Source: an uncultured Gemmatimonadota bacterium (lineage in GTDB: Bacteria > Blakebacterota > Blakebacteria > Blakebacterales > Blakebacteraceae). From it: a stretch of DNA of 58,488 nt. The notes under the pieces were generated by a model that was not told where the DNA came from, did no database searches, and worked only from the letters and a program-made list of their open reading frames with translations. The position numbers and the translations under genes are program-made. The DNA is taken from NCBI GenBank assembly GCA_964576115.1, contig CAZNUA010000022.1, forward strand, positions 1 to 58,488, in the 5' to 3' direction. Shown piece after piece: positions 3,019-53,443 of the stretch (position 1 is the first letter of the stretch; each line of letters opens with the position of its first letter).

Positions 3019-3447
3019 ATGCGATTCCCACTCTCACCGAAAGGCCGGTGGCGCCCTCTGGTCACGGCCCTGATCATCTTCGGTACCGCCGGGGCCATCG
3101 GTTGCGCCGCCGCGGCGCCGAACCTGAACCAGCCGCGCATCCGGAACAAACTCGACCTGCGCCTGCAGAACGCTCTGGGCGGCAGTACGGTCGGCGAAAC
3201 TCTCGGGGAATACATCCGGGTGCTGGTCAAACTCGAGAGCGACGGTACCGATGACGATCTCGCCCAGCTCAAGACGATCGGCGCTACCTCTCCCTTCACC
3301 GGCGCCATCACCACCATGACTCTCGAACCGGCCCGGGTCATCGACCTGGCGGTCCTGGACAGGGTCGTCTCCATCGAGCTCGAGTCACCGAACGCCCCCA
3401 AACCCAATCTGCCCCCACCCCCGCCTGCAGCAGGAGACATGTTGTGA
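3019..3447 (+). CDS. Small exported (probable lipo)protein resembling a subtilase prodomain
   Basis: AAGGAGG RBS before ATG 3019; hydrophobic leader ending AIGC; visible similarity to the prodomain of the downstream S8 protease; stop overlaps the S8 start. Confidence 0.7.
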   Translation: MRFPLSPKGRWRPLVTALIIFGTAGAIGCAAAAPNLNQPRIRNKLDLRLQNALGGSTVGETLGEYIRVLVKLESDGTDDDLAQLKTIGATSPFTGAITTMTLEPARVIDLAVLDRVVSIELESPNAPKPNLPPPPPAAGDML

Positions 3448-6374
3448 TGCGTCGCTTGCGTACCATGCCGTCGGCGGCTCTCGGATCGGTGTTCCTGGCC
3501 CTGCTTCTGGTCGCCGCCGCCCCGCAGGAACGTCCCGAACTGAACCGGCTCGATCCTTCCCTGAGTATGGCGCTGATGAAAATGCAGCCTCTCGAACAGA
3601 TCGGCCGTCCGGGAGAGATACCCCTCCTGGCCCGGAGCCTGGGTGTCTCTGAAGGTCCGCCTGGAGCCTCTGAACCATGGGTCGATGTGCTCATCCGCGG
3701 ACCGGGGGCGGAATCGGCGATCCGAATGGCCGGCGGGCTTCCGGGGAGTCGTCTGGGCGGCGTGACGACCGCCCGGCTGCCTCTGAGCCAGGTCGCCGGG
3801 GTGGCCGCCGCCGCCGGCATCCACTATGTGGAAGCGGCGGTCCGCTGCTACCCCACCCTGGAGGCAAGCGTGCCGGAGACGGGGGCCAATATGGTCCACG
3901 ACACCTACGGCGAAAAGGGTGCCGGGGTGCTCGTCGCCGTCTACGATACGGGGATCGACTTCACGCATCCCGATTTCATCAAGGCCGACGGGATGACCCG
4001 AATTGCGTTCCTCTGGGATCAGAGCGACAACAGCGGCACGGCCCCGACGGGGTACGCCTACGGATCGGAATGGACCGCGGCCCAGATCAACGACGAGATC
4101 GACGGTTCGCCGGTCGGGCTTGTTACCCAGCAGGACATCAACGGGCACGGAACCCACGTGGCCGGGATTGCCGCCGGGAACGGACGGGCGACCGGAAACG
4201 GAGTTGACGCCGGCACCTACACCGGCATGGCGCCCGAGGCCGATCTGCTCATCATCAAAGGCGGAGACAACAGTTTCTCTTCAGCCGACGTTCAGGACGG
4301 CGTGGCCTGGGCCGTTGCGAAAGCAGCCGCCCTCGGTCAGCCGGTGGTGATCAACCTGAGCCTCGGCGGTCACGGCTACGCCCACGACGGCACCTCTCTG
4401 TACGAGCAGGCTCTCAACAGCGCTTCGGGAGCGGGGAGCATTATCGTCGCTGCGGCCGGGAACGAAGCCGACGACCTGATCCACGGCCGGGCGACCGTCA
4501 ATGAGGTCCAGGCCGTTCCGAAAGACTCGATCGGGATCGAAATCAGCAGCTACACCCCGTCGAGCGGAACCGGGAACGACTACGTCAAGCTCGATATCTG
4601 GTACTCAGGCACGGCCGGTGTCAGGATGGTTGTACGCTCCCCCAACGGCCACGCCTACGGCCCTATCGATCCGGGCAATCTCTCCTTTACGAGCGATCAC
4701 GCCGACGGCCACATCTCAGCCGCCTCCTCGAGCGCCCCGAACGCCAACAACGGCGACAAGGAAGCGATCATCGCCATTGACGACCAGACGGCCGGTCAGG
4801 AACCGGTCGCGGGCACCTGGTGGGTCGTCTTCGAGCTGTTGAGCGGCGAGGAAGTGACCATCGACACCTGGATCTACGACAATACTCTCAACGGGACGAT
4901 TTCGGGAGGTACGGCCGATTACAGCATCGCCGTCCCGGCCTGTGCCGAAGAAGTCATCGCGGTGGGCTCTTACGTAAGCACGTGGGGCTGGACGGCCCTC
5001 AACGGCCTGGGATACTCCTACCTCGGTTCCTCGCGGTTGGGAGATTACAGCACTTTCTCGAGCTGGGGTCCCACCCGTGACGGCCGCACCAAGCCCGACA
5101 TCATGGCCCCCGGGCAGGGCATCTTCGCCGCCCTCTCGACTCAGATGTCGACCGCACCCGACAGCTCCCATATCGCCCCCGACGGCGTTCACCGCGTCAA
5201 CCAGGGTACCTCCCAGGCCGCCCCGCACGTGGCCGGGGCGGTGGCCCTGATGCTGGGCACGTCGGCCAGCCTGACCCCGACTCAGGTGCTCACCGCCCTG
5301 CAGAACGGAGCCGAGAGCGACAGCTACACCGGTACGGTTCCGAACAACACCTGGGGAGTGGGCAAACTCGACGCCCGCGAGTCATACGAACTGGCGACCG
5401 GAACCACGGATGCCACGCCCCCCGACGTCACCATCGGTTTGCTGCGCAATACCGTTCTGACCGAATACCTCGATCTCTACGTCTGGCCCCGTGAAACTCT
5501 CCCGGACATTCCGAGCCTCTGGGTATCGAGCACGAGCGGGGATGACACCCTGACCACCGAACTGATTTCCACCGAAGACGGTCCGCTCTACGTGGCTGAC
5601 TACCTGATCCCGGCGGCGGGGAACTACACCCTGAACGCCCTGGTCTTCGATGCCGCCGGCAACGACTCCATCCACACCCGGAACTTCTCGGCTGCCGGCG
5701 CAGGTCTGGGCGGAGGGATGCTGGTCAGCGCCGACGGGATCATGACCGCCACCTTCACATCGGGCGCCCTGGCGTCGGGCGGGTACGTGATCGCCACACC
5801 ATTCAGAACCCGTCCGGGGGAGACGATGGCGGCCGGAGTCGAAGAGGGACTCTCGCCGGCCTACCGGTTGATCCCCGAGGGAGCCTCGCTCGACCGTAAA
5901 GCCCGGCTCTCCTTCGCGTACGATCCCGCCCGCCTTGGCAGCGCGTCTCCGGAGGACCTGCGGATCTGCCGCTGGACCGGCGAAGCGTGGACAGCGGTCG
6001 AGAGCTGGACGGACACCGAGCGACGTCGGGTCGAGGCCTCGATCACCGAACTGGGCATCTATCAGCTCAGGATCGATGAAACGGTCGGGTTCGATCTGAG
6101 CTTCGGGCTCGAACAGAACTATCCCAACCCCTTCAACGGATCAACCCGGATACGCTACACCCTGGCCCGTTCCGCCGATGTGTCGATCACGATCCTCAAC
6201 GTGCGGGGGCAGCGGGTACGCACTCTGGTGGATCGTCACCAGAGCGCCGGCCGTCACATCGTGTCCTGGGACGGTCGCGGTGAGGGGGGTCGGGATCTGG
6301 CATCAGGGATCTACCTCGTCGTCATGAGAACCGACCGACAGGTCTTCACCCGTAAGGTGCTGTTGCTGCAGTAA
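3444..6374 (+). CDS. Secreted S8 (Csp-like) serine protease with inserted domain and C-terminal FlgD-Ig/T9SS-type sorting domain
   Basis: Catalytic motifs YDTGID, HGTHVAG and GTSQAAPHVAG; oxyanion AAGN; C-terminus LEQNYPNPFN...WDG....LASGIY...RKVLLLQ. Confidence 0.92.
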   Translation: MMRRLRTMPSAALGSVFLALLLVAAAPQERPELNRLDPSLSMALMKMQPLEQIGRPGEIPLLARSLGVSEGPPGASEPWVDVLIRGPGAESAIRMAGGLPGSRLGGVTTARLPLSQVAGVAAAAGIHYVEAAVRCYPTLEASVPETGANMVHDTYGEKGAGVLVAVYDTGIDFTHPDFIKADGMTRIAFLWDQSDNSGTAPTGYAYGSEWTAAQINDEIDGSPVGLVTQQDINGHGTHVAGIAAGNGRATGNGVDAGTYTGMAPEADLLIIKGGDNSFSSADVQDGVAWAVAKAAALGQPVVINLSLGGHGYAHDGTSLYEQALNSASGAGSIIVAAAGNEADDLIHGRATVNEVQAVPKDSIGIEISSYTPSSGTGNDYVKLDIWYSGTAGVRMVVRSPNGHAYGPIDPGNLSFTSDHADGHISAASSSAPNANNGDKEAIIAIDDQTAGQEPVAGTWWVVFELLSGEEVTIDTWIYDNTLNGTISGGTADYSIAVPACAEEVIAVGSYVSTWGWTALNGLGYSYLGSSRLGDYSTFSSWGPTRDGRTKPDIMAPGQGIFAALSTQMSTAPDSSHIAPDGVHRVNQGTSQAAPHVAGAVALMLGTSASLTPTQVLTALQNGAESDSYTGTVPNNTWGVGKLDARESYELATGTTDATPPDVTIGLLRNTVLTEYLDLYVWPRETLPDIPSLWVSSTSGDDTLTTELISTEDGPLYVADYLIPAAGNYTLNALVFDAAGNDSIHTRNFSAAGAGLGGGMLVSADGIMTATFTSGALASGGYVIATPFRTRPGETMAAGVEEGLSPAYRLIPEGASLDRKARLSFAYDPARLGSASPEDLRICRWTGEAWTAVESWTDTERRRVEASITELGIYQLRIDETVGFDLSFGLEQNYPNPFNGSTRIRYTLARSADVSITILNVRGQRVRTLVDRHQSAGRHIVSWDGRGEGGRDLASGIYLVVMRTDRQVFTRKVLLLQ

Positions 6375-6396: not shown

Positions 6397-7074
6397 ATGA
6401 AGCGAGAGATGACACTGCCGGGCAAAGAAAGCTGGATCGTTCCTCTGATCCTCGCCGTGGCGGTCGCGGCCGGCGCCTGCAACACCGCTCCACCCGAGGA
6501 CGGCGGCGGCGGTTCCGGCCCTGACGTATCGGCCACCATCGCGCTGGGCTGGACAGCCTGGGAGGCGGCCGATTACAGCACCGCCTTCGATCACTTTGAA
6601 GACGCTTTCAGCCAGAACGCCACCAGCGCCGAGGCCCGCAACGGCCTCGGCTGGGCGGAGCTTTTCCGCGGGCACATGAGTCAGGCGATCTACCATTTCG
6701 ACTACGCCATGTACCTGCAACTGCCCGTCTTCGACGCTCACCTGGGGATGGCGATCGCCCTGCGCGACTCGGCCCACTACTCCAACGCCATTCTCACCGC
6801 CCAGCAGATCCTCGAGGCGATCCCCCGCTACGAGTTCTCGCACCGCACCTCGATCAACTGGAAGGATCTGCGCCTGCTCATCGCCGCCTGTGCCATCAGG
6901 CGCGGCGAGGATTATTTCGATCTGGCCCAGGCGAACGTGGATAGTCTCGATCCGGGCAACGGGCTCGATCCAGATACTCCGGCGACCTGGGTCGTGGGCT
7001 CTACGACCTACGACTCGTACCCCGAGGCCCTGATCAAGAAAATCGAAGCCCTCGAAGCCGTCATAGATCCGTAG
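6397..7074 (+). CDS. TPR-containing lipoprotein
   Basis: Lipobox AGAC; TPR-like helices (LGWTAWEAADYSTA, AEARNGLGWAEL, DAHLGMA); AGGAGG RBS. Confidence 0.75.
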   Translation: MKREMTLPGKESWIVPLILAVAVAAGACNTAPPEDGGGGSGPDVSATIALGWTAWEAADYSTAFDHFEDAFSQNATSAEARNGLGWAELFRGHMSQAIYHFDYAMYLQLPVFDAHLGMAIALRDSAHYSNAILTAQQILEAIPRYEFSHRTSINWKDLRLLIAACAIRRGEDYFDLAQANVDSLDPGNGLDPDTPATWVVGSTTYDSYPEALIKKIEALEAVIDP

Positions 7075-7100
7075 CAGCGGGCATTGTGCACCGATGAAAA

Positions 7101-7126
7101 AAAGGGCCGGTTCAAACCGGCCCTTT
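7101..7126. terminator. Bidirectional intrinsic terminator between convergent genes
   Basis: AAAGGGCCGGT-TCAA-ACCGGCCCTTT perfect inverted repeat with an A-run on the left and a T-rich tail on the right. Confidence 0.8.
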
Positions 7127-7138
7127 CTGTTGGTGGGG

Positions 7139-8065
7139 CTACTGTCCGCGCATGGTCTCGAGCAGGAAAGCGATGTCCTCCGCCGTCATCCGTCGGGCCG
7201 CGGCCTTCATCACCTCGCCGAACCAGGCGATCTCCCAGTCGGCGACGGGGAAACCGACGTTGCGCTCCTCCTCGTTGAAGCAGTCTGCCACGACTGAACC
7301 GTCAGGATCGAGCACATAGAAAACAGGGATCCCGCCGTAGTCTCCGGCGTACCGCTGCTTGACTTCCATCCCCCCGACGGTCCGTGCCTGATCGATCTCG
7401 AGCACGATCAGGTCCTTGTCGATCACCGGGGCGACATCCTCACGTGCAAGCCAGGCTTCCAGCCGGCCGCACCAGCCTCACGTCGGCGCCCCGAAGGTCA
7501 GGAAGAGACGTTTATCCTCCCGCCCGGCCCGGTCGAGAGCGTTGGCCAGCAGCGCCTCGGCCTCCGGGTAGGGGGCCTGATGGGTTTCGAGGAAATCCAG
7601 AACCAGGGCTGGATCGTGGTGATCCCCCTCTTCGAGCGAGCCGGTATCCTGGTTGGCCAGCACACTTCCGTCAGCGGCAAGTACGGTCAGGTAAGGCACT
7701 CCGCTGCCCTGGATGTCGGCCCCGTAGCGTTCCACCAGGTCGAGGTGCTTGTCCCAGCGGCCGATGTCCACGGTTACAACCTCGTACTCGTAGAGAATTT
7801 TGCGGGCGATCGTACGATCGGTCCGGAACAGGTCGTGCAGTTTGATACACCAGCCGCACCAGTTCCCACCCCACTGGATAAGCACCCGTTTGTTCTTGCG
7901 GGCCGCAACAGCGAGCGCGGCGGCGATATCGGCTCCGGCATCGGCCGCCTCATCGTAGACCGGCAGCCGCTCGGGCGATGAGTCCTGCTGGGCCGTCAGA
8001 CCGGTCGGGCAGGCCAGAACCAGGGTGACGAGGGTCAGAATGGATACACGGACAGAGTGGTACAC
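7139..8065 (-). CDS. Exported tandem-thioredoxin protein, probable selenoprotein (CGWC domain + UGWC domain)
   Basis: Track ORFs 7478..8149 and 7139..7426 are in the same frame and separated only by TGA 7478-7480. Read-through gives FLTFGAPT-U-GWCGRLEAWL, aligning with domain 1 LIQWGGNW-C-GWCIKL. GTG start at 8065 after GGGAG; signal peptide; cis-Pro-like motifs GVP and GIP. Confidence 0.85.
7444..7472 (-). promoter_or_regulatory. Candidate bacterial SECIS element
   Basis: After the UGA: GUGC-GGCC-GGCU-[GGA]-AGCC-U-GGCU-U-GCAC hairpin. The apical loop starts with G 18 nt after the UGA. Confidence 0.65.
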
Positions 8066-8084
8066 GGCGGTCTCCCTTCCCGGT

Positions 8085-9257
8085 TCAGATCTTGATGAAG
8101 ATGCGACGCCGATAAAGTAGAGCCGCCACGGCCAGCCACAACAGTACATTTGCCATCGCGAAGGCGAGCGAACCGTTCATCTCCCCCGCCCAGGGGACGA
8201 AGAGGTGTCGGTAGAGCCAGCTGTAGAGCGAGAGGGGATCGCCGGCTGCAGCCCCGACCTGGATCCGGATCGCCAGCTTGACCACGAGACCCGACCCGAC
8301 GAAGAGAGCCAGCGGGTTGAGGCCGAAGAGGATGGCCGGCCGGGCCCAGCGGGTCAGCCCCCTGACCTCGATCAGCCAGTAGCAGATCGCCAGCAGTTCG
8401 AGCGCGGCGCCGGCCGTGTAGAGCACATACGAGCTGGTCCAGAGGGCTTTGTTGATGGGGAACACCAGACCCCAGACCGCCCCGGCAGCGATCCCCCCCC
8501 ACCCCAGGACGAACATCCGGTTCACGATTTCTTCCCGCGGTCGCCCCGAGGTCAGCAGGTGACCGGTCAGCACACCCGCCAGCACGGTCGCCACGGCGGG
8601 GATGGTACTGAGCAATCCCTCGGGATCGTAGAGAGCACGCCAGGTGTGACCCGCAAAAAGGGTGCGGTCGAGCCAGGCCGCCAGGTTTCCCTCCAGGCTC
8701 AGGTCCGCGGCTCCGTACCCGGGCACCGGAACCAGGGTCATCATCGCCCAGTAGACCAGCAGGAGACCCGCCGCGATCGCACCCTGAGTCCGCCGGCCGG
8801 TGTACAGGACGATCAGGGCGGCGGCGCCGTAGGCCAGGGCGATCCGCTGCAGGACCCCGAAATAACGCAAGGTGCCGAAATCGAAACGGGGAAAGGCGTT
8901 CAGGAACAGGCCGAGGGCGAAGATCAGCAGAGTGCGGCGCAGCACCTTGCGCTGCAGTTCGCGGCGACCGGCGCCCCGTTCGCGGTGCCGGGTGAACGAG
9001 AGGACGATCGCCACCCCGACGATGAACAGAAAGAAGGGGAAGACGAGGTCGGTGAGAGTGCAGCCGTGCCACTCGGCGTGCCGCAGGGGGGGATAGACGT
9101 ACGACCAGCTGCCCGGATTGTTGACCAGGATCATCCCCGCGATGGTCAAGCCCCGGAAGGCGTCGAGAGAGGCGAGCCGACCGGGGATGGGGGATAGAAC
9201 CGTGGAGCCGGGACCGGCCGGAGCAACTCCGGCCGGTCCAGACCCCGGATGATTCAC
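8085..9257 (-). CDS. Heparan-alpha-glucosaminide N-acetyltransferase-like (HGSNAT/DUF5009, NagX-like) membrane protein
   Basis: [59 protein letters not shown] and [12 protein letters not shown] motifs. Confidence 0.9.
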
Positions 9258-10240
9258 GCTCCCGGTTCCCTGTCGATGGTGTCGTATTTCGGGGGTTCGG
9301 GCGGCTTCGATTCCTTCAGGGCCTTGCCCGAGGCGGCGGGCAGATCCTGCAGGATCTCGGCGATACCGCCCAGCCCTCCGAGCAGGGCCGAGGCTTCGAA
9401 GGGCAGGAAGATCTTGGTGGCCTGGCCGTCGGCCATGGCCGTGAGGGCTTCCAGGTACTTGATCGTGATCAGGTCCTGGGTCGGATTGCCGTCGTGGATC
9501 GCCTCGTACACCTTGAGCACCGCCTCTGCCTCACCGTTGGCCACGGTGGTCAACTGGTAGCGGTCGGCGTCGGCGACCTTCTCTATCGCCATGGCCCGTC
9601 CCTCGGCTTCAAGGATGGCGGCCTGCTTCTGTCCCTCGGCCACCTTGATGGCGGCTTCCCGCTCCCCGTCGGCCTCGAGCACCACCGCCCGCCGGGTCCG
9701 CTCGGCCTTCATCTGGCGGTGCATGGCTTCCATCACGTCGGCGGGGGGCTCGATCCGCTGAATCTCGACCCGCACGACCCGCACTCCCCAGCGGTCGGTG
9801 GCATCATCGAGGATCTGACGCAGTTTGGTGTTGATCATCTCCCGGCTGGTCAGCGACTCATCCAGATCCAGATCTCCCACAATGTTACGCAGGTTTGTCT
9901 GGGCCAGCTTGGTGGCCGCGGCGTAGAAGTTGGCCACGTTGTAGAGCAGTTTGACCGGGTCGGTGGCCTCGTAGTAGACGATGGCATCCATCGTCACGGC
10001 CACGTTGTCCTCGGTGATCACCTCCTGGGGCGGCACGTCCACCACCTGCTCGCGCATGTCCACTTTGCGGATCTTCTCGATGAAGGGGATGATCAGCACC
10101 AGCCCCGAGTCCATGGTGCGCTGGTACTTGCCGAGCCGCTCCACGACACCTTTCTGGTAGGGGTAGACGATCTTGATCGAGTTCGCCACGAAGACGAACA
10201 GCACGATCGCCAGAACAATCATCACGTATACCGATTCCAT
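9254..10240 (-). CDS. SPFH/Band-7 (QmcA/stomatin-like) protein
   Basis: N-terminal TM helix; [42 protein letters not shown] motifs. Confidence 0.92.
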
Positions 10241-10304
10241 CCGTTTCCTCCTGTGCGGTTCCGGCCCGCGAGCACCGGCGCCCGCTGCCTGATGTCAGGG
10301 ATCC

Positions 10305-10793
10305 CTACTCGACGGCGTCGTCCTTGTCTTCGACTCTTTCCGGCGCATCTTCCCCCGCTTCGAGGGGACGCACGACCAACCGGGTTCCATCGACCTTTTC
10401 CACGACGGCCCAGGTGTCCTTCTCGATCACCGTTCTGTCCGAAGAATCGGCCCGCCACTCTTCGCGATCGACGCGCACCATGCCGGTCGCCGCAGCGGGA
10501 TCGATGGTCTCGATGACATACCCTTTCAGGCCGGTATAGCGCTCGGCCCCGACGCCGAAAGTGGTCGGACCGCGATGAACCGAGCGGGCGAACCTGCGGC
10601 TCCCCGCCCAGGCGATGGCGCTCACGACGAAGAAGACGATCCACTGCCAGAGGATGCTGCCGTTGAAGAGAGCCACGATGAACGCCGCCAGGGCACCGAT
10701 ACCGAATACGATCAGGAAGAACCCGACCGTGAGCATCTCGCCGATGAGCAGTATGGCGGCCAGGATCAGCCAGGCCCAGGTCATGATGTCCAT
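10305..10793 (-). CDS. nfeD: NfeD-family (short, YbbJ-like) membrane protein
   Basis: Three TM helices followed by an OB-fold (GMVRVDREEWRA...VEKVDGTRLVV); canonical position upstream of an SPFH gene. Confidence 0.88.
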   Translation of the reverse strand: MDIMTWAWLILAAILLIGEMLTVGFFLIVFGIGALAAFIVALFNGSILWQWIVFFVVSAIAWAGSRRFARSVHRGPTTFGVGAERYTGLKGYVIETIDPAAATGMVRVDREEWRADSSDRTVIEKDTWAVVEKVDGTRLVVRPLEAGEDAPERVEDKDDAVE

Positions 10794-10904
10794 GGTAGTG
10801 CCCTTTCTTGCAGGTCCTCGGAGCTGAATACCCGACCGGGTTCGTGCTCCTGCCTGCTGTCACGGATCCAACGGGTATACGCAGCAGGCCCGCCGGATTT
10901 CACG

Positions 10905-12056
10905 TCATTGCAGGTTCGCCAGGTAGATCAGGGTACGTTCGGGCCACACCCGGATCCGCTCATGGCTGGTATTGTAGCCGAAGACCGGCTGTTCCATCAG
11001 GTAGTATGTGCCCTCATGCCAGGTCAGCGCCCGGACCGGGTAGTTGGCCGCAATCCGCCGCACGATCCGACCCGAGTCGGGATCGATCCAGGCGATCGCC
11101 TCGCGTCCGGCCACAACCAGGTACTCGCCGTCGAAGGTCAGCCCCCCGTAGCCGGTCTCCTCGGGCTCGAGCTCGCGCACGATCCGGCCCGTCACGGGAT
11201 CGACGGCGCTGATTTTCCGGCTGTGCAGTACCCAGAGCAGCCCCCCGGCCCAGGTGATGGCATGGGCACCGTAGTAGCGGTTGACCTTCATCTCCTCGGT
11301 CACGATCTCGCGTACCACTCGCCCCGAAGCCGGATCGATCACGAAGGTCGGCAGGCCCGCCGTCCAGCCGTACTGCATGGCATAGAGCCGGCGCCCGTCG
11401 GTGGCCAGACCCCGTACCGAGGAGGTCCCCACCGTCTCGGCCAGATCCAGGCTGTCCCGGACAGCCCAGCTCTCCCGATCGATCCGGTAGAGGGTGCCGG
11501 TCTGAGCCACCCAGAGATCGGGGCCGAGCACAACCAGGGCCGAGGGCACTTTCTCCGACGGCGCCGGCCGGGTTCGGATCGTCCCCGAATCCACGATCCG
11601 GTCGGGACGGGGATCAGGGACATCCCAGGCTTCTCCCTGCCGATACAGATCATAGCGGCGCCGGATTTCCTCGAGCCGCTCCAGGAACGGCCCGGGACGC
11701 TCATACCCGCTCCAGCGGTACACTTTCTCACGCTCGTCGCCGATGGCGATCAGGCTGGGCCAGGCGCTGACATTGAAGTAGCGGGCGACATCGGGGATGG
11801 AGTCCCGATCGACAGTGACCCAGTGGAACCGGCGCGAAGTCGCCGCGACCGCGGCGTCACTGAAGGTGGAATCCTCCAGCACGGTGCACCAGCTTCACCC
11901 GTGGTAGGTGAAGTAGAGCAGGACCGGCCGGCTGTCACGTTGCGAGCGGCTCATCGCCGCCTCGACACTCTCCTCCCAGACGATCTCGCGGGCACTGCAG
12001 GCCAGAGCGGTCAGTGCGATCGCTCCCAGAGCCAGTGTGCGTGAGGTTTTGCACAT
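10905..12056 (-). CDS. Lipoprotein with thioredoxin-like domain (U-S-W-C) fused to a beta-propeller; probable selenoprotein
   Basis: Track ORFs 11895..12260 and 10905..11882 are in frame across TGA 11895-11897: RPVLLYFTYHG-U-SWCTVLEDSTFSDAAV...FHWVTVDRD...FNVSAWPS. ATG at 12056; lipobox LAC; propeller repeats GLATDGRRLY, AITWAGGLLW, GLTFDGEYLV, ALTWHEGTYY. Confidence 0.82.
11855..11883 (-). promoter_or_regulatory. Candidate SECIS hairpin for the second UGA
   Basis: After the UGA: CGU-GCUGGAGG-[AUUCCA]-CCUUCAGU-G-ACG, or the alternative short stem UGGA-[GGAU]-UCCA with loop G at +21. Less canonical than the first candidate. Confidence 0.4.
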
Positions 12057-12187: not shown

Positions 12188-13153
12188 ATGACGTTTCAGT
12201 CGCCCCCCGATACCGACCCAGATCTCGATGCCATCCGGCAGGCTTACGGCCGTATCGCACCCCACCTGCATCGCACTCCGGTGCTCACCTCGGCCGCTCT
12301 CGAGGCACTGACCGGAGCCACCCTCATATTCAAAGGCGAGAACTTCCAGAAAGTCGGGGCTTTCAAGGCCCGTGGTGCCACCAACGCCGTCCTGGCGTTG
12401 AACGATGACGAGGCTGGAGCCGGAGTTATCACGCACTCCTCGGGTAACCACGCCGCCGCTCTGGCCTTCGCAGCCCGCCTGCGGGGAATACCGGCCCATA
12501 TCATCATGCCCTCGACCGCTCCGGCCGTGAAGAAGGCGGCCGTGGCAACCTACGGCGGCCTCATCACCGAGTGCGAACCCACACTGGCGGCCCGGGAGGA
12601 AACCGCAGCCCGCGTCGGAGCCGAAACCGGAGCGACCCTCATTCACCCCTACGACAACCCCGCCATCATTGCCGGTCAGGCCACTGCAGCGCTCGAATTG
12701 ATCGAGGACGCCGGTCCGCTCGATCTGATCCTGGTACCCGTCGGAGGGGGCGGGCTGGTGAGCGGTACGGCCCTGGCGGCCGCCGGCCTGGCCCCCGACA
12801 CCCGGGTCGTGGCGTGCGAACCGGCCAACGCCGACGATGCCCGGCGTTCCTTTCAAAGCGGCATCCTGCAGCCGGTGGGAGCGGCCGATACCATCGCCGA
12901 CGGCCTGCGCACCCAGCTCTGCGAGCGGACTTTCCGCATCATCAGAGCCCATGTGCACGACATCGTCACCGTCACCGAAACCGAAATCGTCAGGGCCATG
13001 CGTCTGGTCTGGGAACGGATGAAGATCATCATCGAACCGTCCTCAGCGGTTCCCGTCGCAGCGGCTCTGAATGCAGCGGTCGAGGTTGCGGGACAGCGGG
13101 TCGGCATCATTCTGAGCGGAGGGAATGTGGACCTCGGCGCACTGCCGTTCTGA
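12188..13153 (+). CDS. PLP-dependent serine/threonine dehydratase / serine racemase (fold II)
   Basis: FKGENFQKVGAFKARGA (PLP lysine), HSSGNHA, PVGGGGL, EPSSA and ILSGGNVD motifs; no ACT domain. Confidence 0.92.
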   Translation: MTFQSPPDTDPDLDAIRQAYGRIAPHLHRTPVLTSAALEALTGATLIFKGENFQKVGAFKARGATNAVLALNDDEAGAGVITHSSGNHAAALAFAARLRGIPAHIIMPSTAPAVKKAAVATYGGLITECEPTLAAREETAARVGAETGATLIHPYDNPAIIAGQATAALELIEDAGPLDLILVPVGGGGLVSGTALAAAGLAPDTRVVACEPANADDARRSFQSGILQPVGAADTIADGLRTQLCERTFRIIRAHVHDIVTVTETEIVRAMRLVWERMKIIIEPSSAVPVAAALNAAVEVAGQRVGIILSGGNVDLGALPF

Positions 13154-18591: not shown

Positions 18592-19932
18592 ATGTCACGT
18601 GACAGGTGTCGGTACCGAAAGTATCGTAGCGTCTCTATCCATCACGGGCTCCTGTATCTGATTGCCCTCCTCCTCGTTCTGCCCCTGCCCGGCTGCTCGC
18701 GCCGGGCCGGCGATCCCACCGGATCTCTGGTCGAACGACGCACCACCGACGGCACGATCACCACCGTACGGGCGATCTCGGGCTCGGTCTGGGGCGGGCG
18801 GGCTCACCTGGCGGAGGAGGTACGTATCGGAGCCGATGAGGGACCGGAAGGCGATATTCTGAGCAATGTCCGGGCGATCACCTGTGACCGCCATTCCATC
18901 TATGTCCTTGACGGCGGCAACCGGTGTCTGCGGGTCTACGATATGGACGGCCGCCATGTCAGGAATATCGGCCGTCAGGGTCACGGCCCGGGGGAGATGG
19001 ACAATCCCGTGAGCCTGGCCATTCATCCGCACAACGGCACCTTGTTTGTACGGGACGGACGACTCAGACGTATGAATATCTACACCCCCGGCGGCGAGGT
19101 CATCGATCACTGGCAGCTGCCGACCACCTGGCAGTGCAGCCGGCCCTCCTGGTTCGATACCGACGCTGTGCTCTTCACTCCCGAGATCGTCCGGCCTCCG
19201 CAGACTGACATGGATTTCCATCAGGGGGTGTGTTTCGGGTACATCTCGATCGGTCCGGAAGGAGCGCTCGGAGATACCCTGGCACGCCCGGAGACCGATT
19301 TCAGACATGCTCTGGTCGTCTGTCACTATGAAGACGGCGGCTCCAGTGCTCAGGGTGTTCCCTTCACGCCTCGAGTCGTCTGGTCGTGCCGGAATGACCG
19401 ATCGATGGTGTGGGGTATCCCGGAGGACTATCGGTTCGAGATCCGCTCCCCTGACGGTCGTACGGTCATCTGCGAGCGCCCTGAAGTACGCGTTCCGGTC
19501 CTGCCGGAAGAAGCGGAGTGGCACCGGCGCAAGGTAACGGCCAGTATGCGGAGGAACCAACCCGGGTGGGCCTGGAACGGTCCCGAGATCCCCCGCTACA
19601 AGCCGGCGTACTCCGATCTCATCCCCGATCGCAGCGACCGCATCTGGGTCGTGCGGCAGGGACCGGGCGTGTATCACCCTGAGGGTGTCGCGAATCCGTT
19701 GACAAGTGACGGGTACTGGCAGAACCCCCTCTATACCGATTCGACTCTGATCGATGTTTTCGATGGGCAGGGGCACTTTCTCGGTGAAGTCGAGGCATCG
19801 ACGGAGATCAGATTCTGGGGGAACAGCACCTGGATTGAAGACGATACCGTTATCGCCTGTGCCGAAGCCCCGTCGGGGGCGATCGAAGTCGTGCGCTACC
19901 GGCTGGTGCTGCCCGACGGGACTGCGCCGTAG
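18592..19932 (+). CDS. Six-bladed beta-propeller (NHL-like) lipoprotein
   Basis: Lipobox LPGC; IGRQGHGPGEM motif; DRSDRIWV and DVFDGQGHFLG blades. Confidence 0.8.
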   Translation: MSRDRCRYRKYRSVSIHHGLLYLIALLLVLPLPGCSRRAGDPTGSLVERRTTDGTITTVRAISGSVWGGRAHLAEEVRIGADEGPEGDILSNVRAITCDRHSIYVLDGGNRCLRVYDMDGRHVRNIGRQGHGPGEMDNPVSLAIHPHNGTLFVRDGRLRRMNIYTPGGEVIDHWQLPTTWQCSRPSWFDTDAVLFTPEIVRPPQTDMDFHQGVCFGYISIGPEGALGDTLARPETDFRHALVVCHYEDGGSSAQGVPFTPRVVWSCRNDRSMVWGIPEDYRFEIRSPDGRTVICERPEVRVPVLPEEAEWHRRKVTASMRRNQPGWAWNGPEIPRYKPAYSDLIPDRSDRIWVVRQGPGVYHPEGVANPLTSDGYWQNPLYTDSTLIDVFDGQGHFLGEVEASTEIRFWGNSTWIEDDTVIACAEAPSGAIEVVRYRLVLPDGTAP

Positions 19933-20098
19933 CAAAAAGAGATCGGCCGCTTCTTACCCTCGACCGTGTCGGCCCTGCGACCGGCCCGGTCCCCGGCAAC
20001 ACTTTCCTGACAGCCGCCGACAGTATTTGTCAGTCCGATCGCACTCAGGTACAATCCCCTGCCATGCGGCCCCAGAGTCCCTTTCCTGCGAGGAGATC

Positions 20099-23056
20099 AT
20101 GAGAATTCGGACAGCATCCCTCATCGGATCCTGCGTCCTCCTGCTCACCGCCCCCGCCGCGGTCCAGGCGCAGTACCAGGAACAGGTCACCAACCAGCTC
20201 GACGCAGCCAACGGCATCATGAACGAGTCCGGCTTCACGCTCGTCCGCTCCTACCTGACCGGTTCACTCAACGACGACACCTCGGAGCGGGTCGCGCTCG
20301 ACCTGCAGGCGGGGATCGGGTACCAGATCTGGGGGTTCTGCGACAACGACTGCAGCGACCTCGACCTGACCCTCTACGATCCCGGCGGCAATGTCGTCGC
20401 GACCGACGTCGAACTCGATGACACCCCCCTGCTGATCATCACCGCTTCGATGAGCGGCAGCTACTCGCTCGAGGTGAAGATGATCGACTGCAGCGTCTCC
20501 CCCTGTTTCTACGGGGTCGGGCTGTGGTCGAGCGGGGGTGGGGGCGGGGGCGGCGGGACCGGAGGGACGGGAACGACGCAGACATTCTCCGGCCGGCTCG
20601 AGAAGGGCGATGATACTCTCGAGACGGGCGAGTACTTCGACGCTCATTCGATCGAGGTCCAGAGCGGTCAGCACGTAATCGTGGACATGCGCTCGAGCGA
20701 TTTCGACACCTATGTCGGGCTGGGCCCGCCGAGCGATGAGACCATCGAGAACGACGATTACGAGGGCGACACCCACCGTTCCCGGGTCGAAGTCGACGCC
20801 ACCGAGAGCGGCACCTGGATCATCATCGCCACCTCCTACGAGGCCGGGGAAACCGGCGCCTACACCGTGACGGTGACGATCTCGGGCGGCAGTGCGGGCA
20901 AGCCGGGAGCCGAACAGGCGGGCGGGCAGACCTACACCGGACGCCTCGAGAGCGGAGACACGACCCTGACCAGCGGGGAGTACTATGACTCCTTCACCTT
21001 CACCGCCAGCGCCGGGCAGCATCTGATCGTCCAGATGCAGTCGGGCGACTTCGACACCTACCTCGGGGTGCGCTCCCCGACCGGCGAGAAATACGACAAC
21101 GACGATCACGAGGGGAGTACCAGCCGGAGCCAGGTCGAGATCGACCTGGCCGAATCGGGCACCTGGACCATCCTGGCGACCTCGTATTCAGAGGGGATGA
21201 CCGGCGCCTACACCGTGACCTACTCGCTCTCGGGCGCGGGCGGGGGCGGCTCGGAGGGCGACCGTTTCGAGGCAGGCACCCTGGCCGGCGGCGATCAGAC
21301 CCTCTCGTCGGGCGAGTACGTCGATAAGTACACCTACAGCGGCCGGCAGGGGGAAACGGTCACCTTCGACCTGCGTTCGACCGCCTTCGACCCCTATCTC
21401 ATCGTGCGCTCCCCCAGCGGCGACCAGAACGACAACGACGATTTCGAGGGCAGCCGCACCCGCTCCCTGCTCTCGCTCACTCTCGAAGAGAGCGGTGAGT
21501 GGGATGTCTGGGTGACCTCGTACGAACCGGGTGAAACCGGGGCCTACGATCTGCGCATCACCCGGGCGGGAGCCGGCGGTGGAAGCGGTGGGACCGGCTT
21601 CGGCGACCGGACCGAGCGGGGCAGTCTCGCCGCCGGCGACCAGACCCTGGAGACGGGGGAGTACGCCGACATTATCTCCTTCGAGGGCGCGCCCGGCCGG
21701 CACGTGCAGGTCGACCTGACCTCGTCGGCCTTCGACACCTACCTGATCGTGGCCGGTCCCGGTGAGGACCGGGGCGAGAACGACGACCACGAGGGGAGCA
21801 CCAGCCAGAGCCGGGTCGAACTCGACATGACCGAGACCGGCACCTACCGGGCGGTGGTGACCTCGTACGCGGCGGGCGAGACGGGGGACTACGAACTCAG
21901 CATCACCTACGGCGGGAGGGGTGACGACGAGCGCTACGATGTCTCGCGCATCTCGATGGGGGGCAGCGCCTCGGGCAGCCTCTCCTCGGGCGATGCGACC
22001 CTCGATTCGGGGGAGTACCGCGACCTGATCGCCTTCGACGGCCAGGCCGGCCAGAGTGTGGCGGTCGACATGACCTCATCGGACTTCGACACCTACCTGG
22101 CCCTGCTCACCCCCGATGATGAGACCCTGCAGAACGACGATTACGAGGGGAGCACCAGCCGCTCCCGGATCGAACTGACCCTGCCGAGTTCGGGGCGCTA
22201 CGTCATCATCGCGACTTCGTACGCCGCCGGCGAGACCGGCACCTACCAGGTCTCGCTCTCCTCCTCGGCCGGGCCGGCACCCGGCCCCGCTCCGGGACCC
22301 TCGGGGGGAGGCAATGTCTACGGCATCTTCATGGGGATCAGCGACTACCCCGGCTCGGGCTCCGACCTGCCCTACTGCGCCGAGGACGCCTCCAATCTGG
22401 CGGCGGCGATGACCCGGGGGGTGGGGATGAGCACGGCCAACTCGATCCTGCTGACCGATTCCCAGGCCACCACCGGCAACTTCCGCAATGCGCTCGACAC
22501 CATGGCCGGCCGGGTCGGCCCCGACGACGTCCTGGTCATCTTCTACTCCGGCCACGGTTCCCGGGTGGACCGTAGCGGGGGGTACGAACAGGCCGACCCC
22601 GACGGCAAGGACGAGACCCTCTACCTCTACGACGGGCATCTGTTCGACAACGAGATGAGCGAACTGCTCGATACGGTCAACGCCGGCACCACCCTGCTCG
22701 TGCTCGACGCCTGCTTCAGCGGCGGGTTCGCCAAGGACGTCATCTCCCGCCCCGGGCGGATGGGGCTCTTCAGCTCCGAAGAGGATGTCACCTCGATGGT
22801 GGCCGGCAAGTTCACCGCCGGGGGCTACCTGGCCTACTTCATCGCCGAAGCGGTGGGAGAGAAACTGGCCGACGAGGACCAGAACGGCGAGATCACCGCT
22901 CTGGAACTGAGCCAGTACATCTACGAGCGCTACCGCACCGACGTCAAGTCGGGGGGTGCCGAGGACTACGTGAGCCTGAGCGCCCGGCAGCTCGGCTACC
23001 AGCACCTGGTGGTGGACCGGGGCAGTATCGGCCCCTTCCAGGTGATTTTCCGCTAG
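20099..23056 (+). CDS. Secreted protein with tandem PPC (pre-peptidase C-terminal) repeats and a C-terminal caspase-like (C14) domain
   Basis: AGGAG RBS and signal peptide ending AVQA; N-terminal CDNDCSDLDL domain; five repeats GxL..GD.TL..GEY.D...S.DFD.YL...NDD.EG...SR...TSY..GETG.Y; dyad FYSGHG / LDACFSGG. Confidence 0.85.
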   Translation: MRIRTASLIGSCVLLLTAPAAVQAQYQEQVTNQLDAANGIMNESGFTLVRSYLTGSLNDDTSERVALDLQAGIGYQIWGFCDNDCSDLDLTLYDPGGNVVATDVELDDTPLLIITASMSGSYSLEVKMIDCSVSPCFYGVGLWSSGGGGGGGGTGGTGTTQTFSGRLEKGDDTLETGEYFDAHSIEVQSGQHVIVDMRSSDFDTYVGLGPPSDETIENDDYEGDTHRSRVEVDATESGTWIIIATSYEAGETGAYTVTVTISGGSAGKPGAEQAGGQTYTGRLESGDTTLTSGEYYDSFTFTASAGQHLIVQMQSGDFDTYLGVRSPTGEKYDNDDHEGSTSRSQVEIDLAESGTWTILATSYSEGMTGAYTVTYSLSGAGGGGSEGDRFEAGTLAGGDQTLSSGEYVDKYTYSGRQGETVTFDLRSTAFDPYLIVRSPSGDQNDNDDFEGSRTRSLLSLTLEESGEWDVWVTSYEPGETGAYDLRITRAGAGGGSGGTGFGDRTERGSLAAGDQTLETGEYADIISFEGAPGRHVQVDLTSSAFDTYLIVAGPGEDRGENDDHEGSTSQSRVELDMTETGTYRAVVTSYAAGETGDYELSITYGGRGDDERYDVSRISMGGSASGSLSSGDATLDSGEYRDLIAFDGQAGQSVAVDMTSSDFDTYLALLTPDDETLQNDDYEGSTSRSRIELTLPSSGRYVIIATSYAAGETGTYQVSLSSSAGPAPGPAPGPSGGGNVYGIFMGISDYPGSGSDLPYCAEDASNLAAAMTRGVGMSTANSILLTDSQATTGNFRNALDTMAGRVGPDDVLVIFYSGHGSRVDRSGGYEQADPDGKDETLYLYDGHLFDNEMSELLDTVNAGTTLLVLDACFSGGFAKDVISRPGRMGLFSSEEDVTSMVAGKFTAGGYLAYFIAEAVGEKLADEDQNGEITALELSQYIYERYRTDVKSGGAEDYVSLSARQLGYQHLVVDRGSIGPFQVIFR

Positions 23057-37438: not shown

Positions 37439-38788
37439 TTACTCCGTGCCCGGTACCGGTACCACCACCGGCAGGTCCACCGGTCCGAGAGCGATCCGGT
37501 CGGGACCGAGCCTGAGATCGGAATTCATCATCTCATCCCAGATGACCTCCCGCCCGGTGTAGGCCGAGATCCTCCCCATGATGGCGCACAGGGTCGAGAT
37601 GGCGGTGTTTTCGGCCTCGTTGAAGGGCGTTCCGGTTCTGATGGCAGTGACCAGGTCGATGTGTTCCTGATCGTAGGGGTCGACCGCCACCCGGCCGGTG
37701 GATTCACCTTCTTCGTTGAGCGGGTAGGGGTACTCCCAGACGAGTCTGCCCTCGAGGTCCCAGATCTTGTTTTGGCAGTTCGTGTAGCCCGTCGTGCCCA
37801 TCACGAACTCCGAGACGTTGCGGGCACAACCGTCGATCTGCCGGCACATGCTGTGCTCGTGCATATTGTCGGCATGGATGAAATCGACGCTGAAGAAGTC
37901 GTACTGATCGCCGGTGACCCGGCGGTGGCGGCCGCCGAAGCCGACCGCCTGGATGGGGTGCGAACCGGCGAACCAGTTGATCACGTCGAGATTGTGCACG
38001 TGCTGCTCGACGATGTGATCGCCCGAGAGCCAGCACCAGTTGACCCAGTCGCGGATCATCCATTCCATGTCCGACCAGCCGCGCTCGCGGGTCTTGTACC
38101 AGAGCTGACCCTGGTTCCAGTAACAGTTGGCTCCCGTGATCTCGCCGATCAGACCGGCCGCGACCTGACGGAAGGTCGCGACGTAATCGCGCTGGTGACG
38201 CCGCTGGGTGCCGGTCACGACGCATAGTCCCCGTGAGTCGGCCCGGCGGGCGGTGGCCATGATCGAGCGGGCCCCGACCGGATCGACCGCGACCGGCTTT
38301 TCCATGAAGACGTGCTTGCCGGCGTTCACGGCAGCTTCGAAATGGACCGGCCGGAAATACGGCGGGGTGGCGATCAGCACCACGTCCACGCCCGAGTCGA
38401 TCAGCCGTTCATAGGCATCGAAACCGAGAAAGCAGTTCTCGTCGGGAACTTCGACTCCGCGGTGCTCGCGGATCGAGGCTCGACAGCTCTCGAGCCGGTC
38501 CTCGAAAACATCTGCCAGGGCTATCAGCTCCAGGTTCGGACCGGCGCCGAGAAACTGCCGTGCCGCACCGGTGCCCCGACCGCCGCAGCCGATCAGGCCG
38601 GCTTTGAGAACCGGGCCGTCGGGGGCGGTGTCGAGCAGGGCGGGATAGGGGTAGTCGGCATGCTGGGACAGAGGACCGCCCGAACCGCTGCAGCCCGCCA
38701 GGGCGGCTGCGGCTGCGCCGGCGGCGCCGATCGCCGCCGCCGTGCCGATGAACTCGCGCCGGCTCGGCGCACCTGATGTCTCACTCAT
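37439..38788 (-). CDS. Tat-exported Gfo/Idh/MocA oxidoreductase
   Basis: SRREF Tat leader (possible lipobox LAGC); GLIGCGGRG, ATPP, EKP, GTQRRH and DHIVEQHVHNLD motifs. Confidence 0.92.
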   Translation of the reverse strand: MSETSGAPSRREFIGTAAAIGAAGAAAAALAGCSGSGGPLSQHADYPYPALLDTAPDGPVLKAGLIGCGGRGTGAARQFLGAGPNLELIALADVFEDRLESCRASIREHRGVEVPDENCFLGFDAYERLIDSGVDVVLIATPPYFRPVHFEAAVNAGKHVFMEKPVAVDPVGARSIMATARRADSRGLCVVTGTQRRHQRDYVATFRQVAAGLIGEITGANCYWNQGQLWYKTRERGWSDMEWMIRDWVNWCWLSGDHIVEQHVHNLDVINWFAGSHPIQAVGFGGRHRRVTGDQYDFFSVDFIHADNMHEHSMCRQIDGCARNVSEFVMGTTGYTNCQNKIWDLEGRLVWEYPYPLNEEGESTGRVAVDPYDQEHIDLVTAIRTGTPFNEAENTAISTLCAIMGRISAYTGREVIWDEMMNSDLRLGPDRIALGPVDLPVVVPVPGTE

Positions 38789-40274: not shown

Positions 40275-40281
40275 GATCGGC

Positions 40282-41229
40282 TCAATCCATCGTGAAGGTG
40301 TTCTTGGCAAAGGTCACGTTTCGGCGGGTGTCCTCGATGAACCGGTCACGGCGCCCGCTGGTTTCGAGCACCAGCCACTTGTTATAGCCGATGTCGTCCA
40401 GGGCCCGGGCGCAGGCGGCCATGTCGACCATGCACCCCTCACTGCCGAGCAGGGGGGTGCTTTTATCCTTCAGGTGCACCTCGCAGATCATCTCGTTGCC
40501 GAGCAGACGCAGCTCACCCGGCACGTCGTAGCCGTTGCCCCACGAGTTGCCCACGTCGTAGTACACCTGAACCCACTGCGAACCGACGCGCTCGATGATG
40601 TCGAGGTTCTGGCGGGCGGTGATGGTGTTCTCCAGGCCCAGCACCACTCCGGCGTCGCGGGCTCGCGGTACGAGGTGCTTGAGAGTCTGCACGACCTTCT
40701 CGACCCAGTCCTCTTTCAGCTCGTAGGAACTGAAACCGCCTTCGGGGTGATCGATATACTCGCCGGCCTCATCGCGGCGGCACAGATCGCCGTTGCCGAA
40801 AAAGGCCAGCAGCACGTTGCGGGCGCCCAGGGCCGCGGCCGCTTCGACGGCATCGGCCACCCAGAGAGCGGCATAGGGCTCGGTGGCCAGGGGGTAGGAA
40901 TTGAGCAGGCCGCCGGCGGCGACCGAATGAAAGGTGATGCCGTGCTGCCGGCCGAGCCGGAGGTAACGCCGGCGCAGGGCCGGATCGCGCAGGGGAATGG
41001 TGTCGAGATCGCTCCCCACGCTGACCTGGATACCCTCCAGATGCGCCTCTTCAGCCCGGGGGATCTGCTCGGGATCGCACATCGGCCCCAGGTTCCAGTC
41101 GCACATACCGATCCCGGCCGCACCGGTCAGGAGAACGCCGTGCGAACCGGCCTCGATCCCGCGCGGCAGCCCCAGGGCCGCCAGCCCCGCTCCCGCCGCC
41201 GTCATGAATTTCCTGCGGTTCATCGCCAT
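40282..41229 (-). CDS. Tat-exported sugar-phosphate isomerase/epimerase (xylose-isomerase-like TIM barrel)
   Basis: MNRRKF Tat leader; LGLEN, YYDVGN, EVHLKD and LVLET metal-binding motifs; GAGGGGG RBS. Confidence 0.85.
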   Translation of the reverse strand: MAMNRRKFMTAAGAGLAALGLPRGIEAGSHGVLLTGAAGIGMCDWNLGPMCDPEQIPRAEEAHLEGIQVSVGSDLDTIPLRDPALRRRYLRLGRQHGITFHSVAAGGLLNSYPLATEPYAALWVADAVEAAAALGARNVLLAFFGNGDLCRRDEAGEYIDHPEGGFSSYELKEDWVEKVVQTLKHLVPRARDAGVVLGLENTITARQNLDIIERVGSQWVQVYYDVGNSWGNGYDVPGELRLLGNEMICEVHLKDKSTPLLGSEGCMVDMAACARALDDIGYNKWLVLETSGRRDRFIEDTRRNVTFAKNTFTMD

Positions 41230-53388: not shown

Positions 53389-53443
53389 GCGTCAGGTTCT
53401 TTCCCCCCCCACGGATACCAGCACCTGACACCCCCGTCGCCGG

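Follow-up and report, generated by a model that had tools for sequence, protein, structure and literature searches.

On the evidence of sequence comparison, two in-frame TGA codons in the genome of an uncultured Gemmatimonadota bacterium (contig CAZNUA010000022.1) are genuine selenocysteine codons and not nonsense mutations. They lie in the first and the last of five genes on the minus strand, which are called gene A (10905-12056) and gene E (7139-8065) in the following. Under the standard code each of the two genes is split by its single TGA, and continuous proteins result when this codon is read through, a lipoprotein of 383 amino acids in case of A and an exported tandem-thioredoxin protein of 308 amino acids in case of E. 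The selenocysteine coding, the domain content, the export signals and the gene order are established by the comparisons described below, which cover the window, that is the whole analysed stretch of 58,488 nucleotides, and orthologous loci from other genomes. Between A and E there are an nfeD gene, a gene for a stomatin-type protein with an SPFH (Band 7) domain and a gene for an HGSNAT-like membrane protein, and a preliminary description of this DNA had seen in the five genes a candidate for one selenium-dependent quality-control system of the cell envelope. The explanation that accounts best for the whole of the data, and that we consider likely, is that A and E are selenoprotein oxidoreductases, a link to the SPFH scaffold being no more than a hypothesis.

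Selenocysteine codons of genes A and E

The selenocysteine codon of gene A (TGA at 11895-11897, minus strand) occupies the first position of a UxxC motif, U being selenocysteine, in the context HG-U-SWC. Relatives of this gene were collected by scanning GTDB species genomes with one peptide pattern of the propeller region, which gave six loci with 40-78% identity, three of them from Gemmatimonadota (L001, L003, L004), one from Zixibacteria (L002) and two from Planctomycetota (L005, L006); this is a small sample and it is biased to relatives that keep the propeller peptide motif. In all six loci, and hence over three phyla, an in-frame TGA is found at exactly the UxxC site, the protein is conserved on both sides of it, and upstream of it the frame runs on into a conserved GRPV-x-YFTF and an N-terminal signal peptide. 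Among 5.8 billion proteins searched, 35 are close homologues of A, and 34 of these lack everything up to and including the redox motif; in an alignment of 20 of the 35, 19 begin after the CxxC site, the remaining one (P0012) being full-length with C-S-W-C. When gene A was used to search 1.84 billion cluster representatives, 52 were found at E <= 1e-30: 27 begin just after the motif, 15 have the N-terminal domain in one open reading frame (ORF), with CxxC in 13 and a degenerate motif in 2, and 10 are other fragments. With 27 selenocysteine-like starts against 13 CxxC forms among these 52 representatives, the selenocysteine form of the family appears to outnumber the cysteine form.

Gene A also carries a constraint at the level of the nucleic acid, measured as codon identity among pairs of orthologues that share the same amino acid. 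This synonymous-codon identity is 0.81 over the 19 codons after the UGA in comparison to 0.495 in the rest of the gene, and none of 296 windows of 19 codons is as high; over the second of two hairpins found there it is 0.93 against 0.495, which none of 302 six-codon windows reaches. The conserved TGA, the conservation of the protein on both of its sides and the suppressed synonymous variation together exclude, for practical purposes, a nonsense mutation or a sequencing error.

In gene E, the TGA (7478-7480, minus strand) lies in the second thioredoxin domain, in the context APT-U-GWC, and is kept in both orthologous loci that contain this gene (L001 and L003). Cysteine forms of E are very common, with 479 matches at E <= 0.001, some of which are named by their sources as Planctomycetes or Aminicenantes. 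Among the 120 homologues listed, 116 are full-length and have two CxxC motifs (one of them three), the second site reading FGAPW-CGWC-xRLEAW, and the sequence FGAPT-UGWC-GRLEAW of the window's E is collinear with this second site. The other four listed homologues end exactly at FGAPT or FGAPW and are found among the six closest listed ones, which have 72-99% identity. In both genes, the UGA thus aligns with a cysteine of homologues and is kept in orthologues.

In a scan of the entire window, 22 TGAs were found to stand in frame between stretches of coding-like sequence, and only those of A and E form a UxxC motif. The claim of the preliminary description that two such TGAs go beyond chance is borne out by comparison, with the codon kept in 6/6 orthologous loci for A and in 2/2 for E. 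Since genes A, SPFH and HGSNAT-like end at ordinary TGA stops, TGA is not reassigned genome-wide, and its decoding depends on the context. Another of these in-frame TGAs (53083-53085, minus strand, in ORF 52534-53391, context E-U-GC) was considered and rejected: it lies antisense to ORF 52462-53388, there is no Pfam match on either strand, and it is regarded as a probable antisense artefact caused by the high G+C content.

The UGA would be read as selenocysteine by means of RNA hairpins directly downstream of it. The published model of the bacterial selenocysteine insertion sequence (bSECIS; legend of Fig. 2 in PMC13188914) has a loop of 3-9 nucleotides (nt), a stem of 4-16 base pairs (bp), a G among the two nucleotides that open the loop, a distance from the UGA to the loop of 16-37 nt, and a minimum free energy of at most -7.5 kcal/mol. 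Gene E possesses a canonical bSECIS-like candidate, a bulged stem-loop at 7444-7472 (minus strand; nt 9-37 counted from the U of the UGA) whose apical loop GGA is 17 nt away from the UGA, and it satisfies all four constraints of the model in all three orthologous sequences, with free energies from -15.6 to -17.8 kcal/mol. In gene A, two adjacent hairpins follow the UGA. Hairpin 1 (11859-11880, minus strand; nt 18-39), a candidate SECIS stem-loop, satisfies all four constraints in 5/7 orthologous sequences, the other two being the window and L001, where its loop is AUUCCA. Hairpin 2 (11841-11856, minus strand; nt 42-57), a candidate for the loop bound by SelB, has a G+C-rich stem of 6 bp and a GGUC tetraloop; it is paired in 100% of the alignment cells of all seven sequences, the loop is invariant, and one of its pairs shows a double change from GC to AU in two sequences and GU in two more.

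Several results weigh against the reading of the two UGAs as selenocysteine or against the role given to the hairpins. The window's own gene A satisfies three of the four constraints with either hairpin, as hairpin 1 has no G in the first two loop positions and hairpin 2 has its loop at a distance of 44 nt from the UGA, where the model allows 16-37 nt. Covariation in the seven A sequences is not significant, the observed score being reached by 98 of 500 shuffles and the observed percentage of paired positions by 45 of 500, and it is for this reason that the suppression at synonymous sites is relied on instead. For E, a corresponding suppression after the UGA is not significant in the three sequences (0.70 vs 0.53, with 18 of 224 windows as high), and as the RLEAW after the motif is also kept in cysteine forms, the E hairpin is partly explained by coding. 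A strict, bulge-free version of the bSECIS model fails for E (0/3) and for the window's A; this version is satisfied at 858 of 8715 ordinary codons (9.8%) in this G+C-rich DNA and was therefore dropped as a discriminating test. Rfam models gave neither a SECIS nor any other meaningful family at either site between 6500 and 13000 at E <= 10, the best match there being only to the terminator hairpin, and fold z-scores of single sequences over the 60 nt after the UGA (+0.34 for E and -1.27 for A) are uninformative in G+C-rich DNA. Finally, no selA, selB, selC or selD was found in the window (29 large ORFs by Pfam, and a tRNA scan that gave zero tRNAs) and no tRNA for selenocysteine in the six loci.

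This last point is also what speaks for a different decoding, in which the UGA is read as cysteine by a UGA-reading tRNA together with a SelB-like factor, or is simply passed by near-cognate read-through, and a recoding of selenocysteine codons to cysteine has been described in some bacteria. It is nevertheless very improbable, as the UGA stands exactly at the nucleophile position of UxxC, and as it is kept over three phyla together with an RNA-level constraint downstream, which is the signature of SECIS-dependent selenocysteine insertion. The same position is occupied by selenocysteine in the known thioredoxin-fold selenoproteins of the table in PMC13188914. That A and E are pseudogenes or split genes, which standard gene callers suggest by splitting both at the TGA and which the likewise truncated database entries seem to repeat, can practically be dismissed in view of the same codon at the same site in six of six (A) and two of two (E) independent assemblies, the conservation of the protein on both sides, the suppressed synonymous variation after the UGA of A, and the UxxC context at only two of 22 coding-like in-frame TGAs.

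Two exported thioredoxin-fold proteins and their likely chemistry

Gene A, which ends at a normal TGA stop, has Pfam matches to PF03190 (Thioredox_DsbH/DUF255; 47.6 bits) and PF13899 (Thioredoxin_7; 33.2 bits), the cut-off being 27 for both. Its redox motif is U-S-W-C. The N-terminus has a lipoprotein signal with the lipobox LTALA-C and, by hydropathy, one hydrophobic segment; among the seven A sequences, the lipobox cysteine was recognized by eye in five and a hydrophobic N-terminus in all seven. An AlphaFold2 model of the protein (predicted local distance difference test score 87.3, predicted template modelling (TM) score 0.79) consists of a thioredoxin domain that is followed by a long helix and by a five-bladed beta-propeller. 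In a Foldseek comparison with the PDB, the best matches to the C-terminal 240 residues of A are glutaminyl cyclases (3nok, 3nol, 3mbr and 2iwa) with target TM-scores of 0.65-0.71 at 12-17% identity, and hhalign relates the propeller with a probability of 99.6% to a family of 210 amino acids that is labelled by its sources as glutamine cyclotransferase or Vgb. PF05096, the sequence family of glutaminyl cyclases, has no match to the window's A at E <= 0.01, and a profile of A finds among PDB sequences only generic propeller repeats, with the cyclases as weak matches from E = 3.7e-4 (3nol) to 0.022. The propeller is thus glutaminyl-cyclase-like in its fold, and A is not classed as a cyclase. A is an exported lipoprotein composed of a thioredoxin domain and a five-bladed glutaminyl-cyclase-like propeller, and it defines a widespread thioredoxin-plus-propeller family that is found in Gemmatimonadota, Zixibacteria and Planctomycetota. 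To our knowledge, the known glutaminyl cyclases have no thioredoxin domain, unlike A.

Gene E matches the same two Pfam families, each in two stretches (PF13899 with 78.2 bits and PF03190 with 44.7 bits). The first of its domains has the motif C-G-W-C (WCGWC) and the second U-G-W-C. Its signal peptide may contain a lipobox (LVLA-C), and hydropathy again shows one hydrophobic segment. The preliminary description was right in placing an exported selenoprotein at each end of the gene group, as both proteins have thioredoxin domains above the Pfam cut-offs, export signals, and the selenocysteine as first residue of the redox motif.

In the proposed mechanism, the selenocysteine of A and E would replace the first, attacking cysteine of a CxxC motif in a fold of the DsbH/Thioredoxin_7 type, and the selenolate with its low pKa would attack disulfides of substrates. 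A and E would then work in the periplasm as oxidoreductases of the thiol-disulfide (selenylsulfide) type, with reduction or isomerization as the most likely reaction, with the propeller of A as a substrate-binding module and the tandem active sites of E working like the two catalytic domains of protein disulfide isomerase. For a periplasmic reductase, the closest parallel in function is DsbH of Chlamydia (NF043050), a periplasmic disulfide reductase which, like the DUF255 proteins, is exported and belongs with its thioredoxin fold to the same Pfam family; DsbH differs in using cysteine and in having a single domain, and with scores of 24.8 bits (A) and 27.6 bits (E) against a cut-off of 190, A and E are not DsbH orthologues. 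It speaks against this proposal that Pfam searches of 29 large ORFs in the window gave no electron donor of the DsbD/CcdA type, and the catalytic role, the direction of electron flow and the transcript structure are inferred.

Some further observations concern proteins related to E and its N-terminus. Four fusions of E-like proteins were found, namely to an amidohydrolase, a GH2 glycosidase, an M61 peptidase and an unassigned region, the first three being the tandem thioredoxins P0334, P0335 and P0336. These fusions to hydrolases are a hint that the E family accompanies exported hydrolases. None of the four is to SPFH, NfeD or HGSNAT, although the lack of such a fusion is weak evidence. In the E proteins of the window (7991-8002) and of L001, a cut by signal peptidase I (…TA/QQ…) would give a mature N-terminus Gln-Gln. 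Together with the propeller of A and a protease of the window that is sorted by type IX secretion, this Gln-Gln brings to mind the pyroglutamate 'Q-rule' of Bacteroidetes.

The five-gene block and its conservation

The three genes that lie between A and E are, in the direction of transcription, nfeD (10305-10793, minus strand; 162 amino acids), the SPFH gene (9254-10240, minus strand; 328 amino acids) and the HGSNAT/NagX-like gene (8085-9257, minus strand; 390 amino acids). NfeD (PF01957, 45.2 bits) is of the short form, with N-terminal membrane segments and a C-terminal partner-binding domain of the oligonucleotide/oligosaccharide-binding (OB) fold. The SPFH protein (PF01145, Band_7, 146.5 bits) has one N-terminal membrane helix and is of the stomatin type, and its scores against the HflK model TIGR01933 (103.2 bits, cut-off 159.4) and the HflC model TIGR01932 (58.8 bits, cut-off 134.4) stay below the cut-offs. 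The third protein is a polytopic membrane protein with eight hydrophobic segments in a crude scan; it matches PF07786 (HGSNAT_cat) with 43.4 bits at a cut-off of 22, and with the NagX model NF046061 it gives 207 bits over the full length, below the cut-off of 480. With all three Pfam matches above the gathering score, the earlier naming of these genes as a NfeD/SPFH pair and an HGSNAT/NagX-like membrane protein holds, the pair being formed by adjacent co-oriented genes with both domains at a gap of 64 bp. NfeD/SPFH pairs are ubiquitous, and stomatin/NfeD operons include qmcA-ybbJ of Escherichia coli and the archaeal stomatin/STOPP pairs. The present genes resemble such operons in the adjacency of nfeD and SPFH, in the short NfeD with its C-terminal OB domain and in the SPFH protein with one helix.

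From A to E, the intergenic gaps are 111, 64, -4 and 19 bp, the start of the HGSNAT/NagX-like gene overlapping the SPFH stop by 4 bp, so that the layout given in the preliminary description was reproduced. So was the strong terminator at its end, an intrinsic one after gene E (7096-7128, minus strand) with a 13-bp G+C-rich stem and a U-run. Its stability of -21.7 kcal/mol (z = -4.88) was reached in none of 200 shuffles, and it is bidirectional, being common to E and a convergent gene at 6397-7074. Terminator-like sites were found in none of the gaps between the genes, including that between A and nfeD. In the latter gap there are promoter-like hexamers (10874-10902, minus strand; TGAAAT, 17 nt, TATACC) of presumed function, and in an alignment these and the ribosome-binding region of nfeD are kept in the window, in L001 and in L003, where the spacing is 18 nt, although L003 has a 12% lower G+C content; a scan with the sigma-70 consensus did not pick up these hexamers. 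Because of this conserved promoter-like pair, A may be a separate transcript. It is thus probable that gene A, which lies upstream, has its own expression, and that nfeD, SPFH, the NagX-like gene and E form one operon, as their spacing of 64, -4 and 19 bp suggests. For E in particular, which follows 19 bp after a NagX-like gene that itself overlaps the SPFH gene by 4 bp, co-transcription is very probable.

The surroundings of gene A in the six relatives were compared by tblastn with the proteins of the window and by Pfam searches of the neighbouring genes. The block A-nfeD-SPFH-(HGSNAT)-E is present in two of them, L001 and L003, both from Gemmatimonadota. In L001 the block is complete (identities: A 78%, NfeD 81%, SPFH 91%, HGSNAT-like 71%, E 72%), and both flanks of the window are present as well, a pyridoxal-phosphate (PLP) enzyme and an ORF of 317 amino acids on one side, and an ORF of 225 amino acids and an S8 peptidase on the other, so that L001 is simply a close relative. 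L003, a locus with 53% G+C, has the same order and orientation at lower identities (A 55%, NfeD 66%, SPFH 84%, E 67%), and exactly 100 N (L003 3409-3508) stand there in place of the HGSNAT-like gene except for its last 35 codons. Its flanks are unrelated to those of the window (DUF1761, Mut7-C RNase, Cpn10-like, FKBP), and that the block is kept amid such unrelated flanks speaks for a unit. In the other four relatives, A has different neighbours: a divergent PLP enzyme, then A, then a gene of the beta-lactamase family PF00144 in L002 and L004, and other genes again in L005 and L006. Homologues of nfeD, SPFH, HGSNAT or E were not found in the DNA of these four loci, of which L002 and L005 are short contigs; in these two, what follows A immediately downstream already differs from the block, and in L004 the DNA without block genes covers 10 kb upstream and 1.2 kb downstream of A. 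Over the six relatives, the linkage is thus kept in two and lacking in four, and the arrangement of the five genes as a block is specific to one lineage, a single group of Gemmatimonadota.

Other neighbours of A deserve mention in their own right. A PLP-dependent dehydratase gene is divergent from A in four of the seven loci (window 12188-13153, plus strand; L001 2804-4117; L002 1-613; L004 8678-9625), its best NCBIfam model being the beta-hydroxyaspartate dehydratase BhcB with 446 bits at a cut-off of 550, and the pairing of A with this enzyme is more widely kept than the linkage of A to nfeD. The PF00144 serine hydrolase gene is found directly downstream of A at L002 2090-3310 and at L004 11104-12313, where it overlaps A by 4 bp, and the window has a class-A-like beta-lactamase gene (PF13354; 14091-15152), which lies on the opposite side of A at a distance of three genes.

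How the selenoproteins are related to the genes between them can be seen in different ways. It is quite conceivable, if somewhat short of probable, that the neighbourhood is incidental, A and E being independent periplasmic oxidoreductases that came to lie beside a housekeeping nfeD-SPFH pair and stay there by descent in one lineage. This agrees with the other neighbours of A in four of six relatives, with the very common cysteine forms of E and the E-like fusions that point to hydrolases, and with the ubiquity of NfeD/SPFH pairs and the promoter-like site in the gap after A. It agrees less with L003, which retains the block though both flanks differ, or with the position of E, the co-transcription of which with nfeD, SPFH and the NagX-like gene is so probable.

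The opposite possibility is one functional selenium-dependent module of the envelope, in which redox chemistry would act on client proteins organised by an SPFH/NfeD microdomain together with a NagX-like acetyltransferase. Co-orientation, tight spacing, one common terminator and a gap after A that is free of terminator-like sites would fit such a module, as would the order and orientation kept both in L001 and in L003, which is more distant and shares no homologue with the flanks of the window in its own flanks, and the selenocysteine codon of E that is kept in both. Against it stand the four relatives in which A occurs without nfeD, SPFH, HGSNAT and E, including L004 from Gemmatimonadota itself, the divergent PLP enzyme as a more widely kept neighbour of A (four of seven loci including the window), the conserved promoter-like site that separates A from nfeD, the E-like fusions, weak evidence though they are, of which none leads to SPFH, NfeD or HGSNAT, and the occurrence of the block in three genomes of one phylum only. 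The topology of the middle proteins is a further point against the module. By a crude analysis of hydropathy and charge, the SPFH helix comprises residues 4-22 and is directly followed by a K/R-rich sequence, and K/R-rich sequence also follows the membrane segments of NfeD, so that by the positive-inside rule the soluble domains of both are probably cytoplasmic, which is the side of the membrane opposite to the exported thioredoxins. The module in this form is therefore doubtful, and the hypothesis that the selenoproteins function together with the SPFH scaffold is rather unlikely as well. Slightly less probable still is the most elaborate version, a real module of two lipid-anchored periplasmic selenoproteins that act on clients organised by stomatin/NfeD and the NagX-like protein, with a two-hairpin SECIS in gene A whose GGUC loop lies beyond the spacing of the model. 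Of the single envelope quality-control system that the preliminary description had proposed, there remains the block in L001 and L003, whereas the other neighbours of A in four of six relatives, the promoter-like site between A and nfeD, the likely cytoplasmic SPFH/NfeD domains and the missing of linking fusions do not go with it, and the reading of the five genes as a system is only weakly supported.

Apart from these genes, the window contains a plus-strand subtilase gene (3444-6374) whose product combines Peptidase_S8 with C-terminal FlgD_ig and Por_Secre_tail sorting domains. A subtilase of this type points to a type IX secretion system and fits an origin from Gemmatimonadota or the Fibrobacteres-Chlorobi-Bacteroidetes group, as does the protein identity of 71-91% to L001 from Gemmatimonadota. 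A minus-strand ORF at 38781-40310 encodes an N-terminal NapC/NirT tetrahaem cytochrome (PF03264) together with an FGE-sulfatase domain (PF03781), which looks like an unusual fusion, and the plus-strand gene at 19754-23056 encodes a protein of 1100 amino acids with PPC pre-peptidase domains and a caspase-family Peptidase_C14 domain.

Relation to known selenoproteins

A and E belong to a well-known kind of protein, the thioredoxin-fold selenoproteins with a UxxC motif, to which their families are newly added. The table in PMC13188914 includes UxxC selenoproteins of PF00085, PF13098, DsbA-like, DsbG-like and cd02966 isomerase-like type. Like those, A and E have the selenocysteine first in the thioredoxin motif, homologues with cysteine and a SECIS-like hairpin after the UGA, and like there the function is deduced from bioinformatics alone. 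They differ from the listed proteins in having their best matches to PF03190 and PF13899, in the additional propeller and lipobox of A, and in the cysteine/selenocysteine tandem of E. PF03190, PF13899 and the word 'propeller' are absent from the main text of PMC13188914, the supplementary tables of which may list more families. The Trx7/PDZ selenoprotein NF041199 described there is of the Thioredoxin_7 type like A and E, but its motif is CxxU and its partner domain is PDZ, and it has no match to A or E at E <= 0.001. None of the NCBIfam selenoprotein models reaches its cut-off with A or E, the best one being TsoB with 27-31 bits against 805. Searches of the literature, which covered main texts, gave no description of the families of A and E or of the five-gene block, and none of NfeD/SPFH pairs with thioredoxin-fold selenoproteins on their flanks or with a NagX-like gene behind them; passages of PMC12013277, PMC5029168 and PMC13326102 likewise contain nothing on the families of A or E.

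If the link to the SPFH protein were true, which is not established here, it would give NfeD/SPFH pairs a defined biochemical partner. As database entries are truncated at the selenocysteine codon (34 of the 35 closest homologues of A, and four of the six closest listed for E), the signal peptides and the active sites of these proteins are invisible in catalogues, and A and E are systematically mis-annotated. Hairpin 2 of gene A, with its GGUC loop 44 nt from the UGA, is a natural test case for the spacing rule of the bacterial SECIS. With gene A, selenoproteins that are exported and lipid-anchored become known from phyla to which surveys of selenoproteomes have paid little attention.

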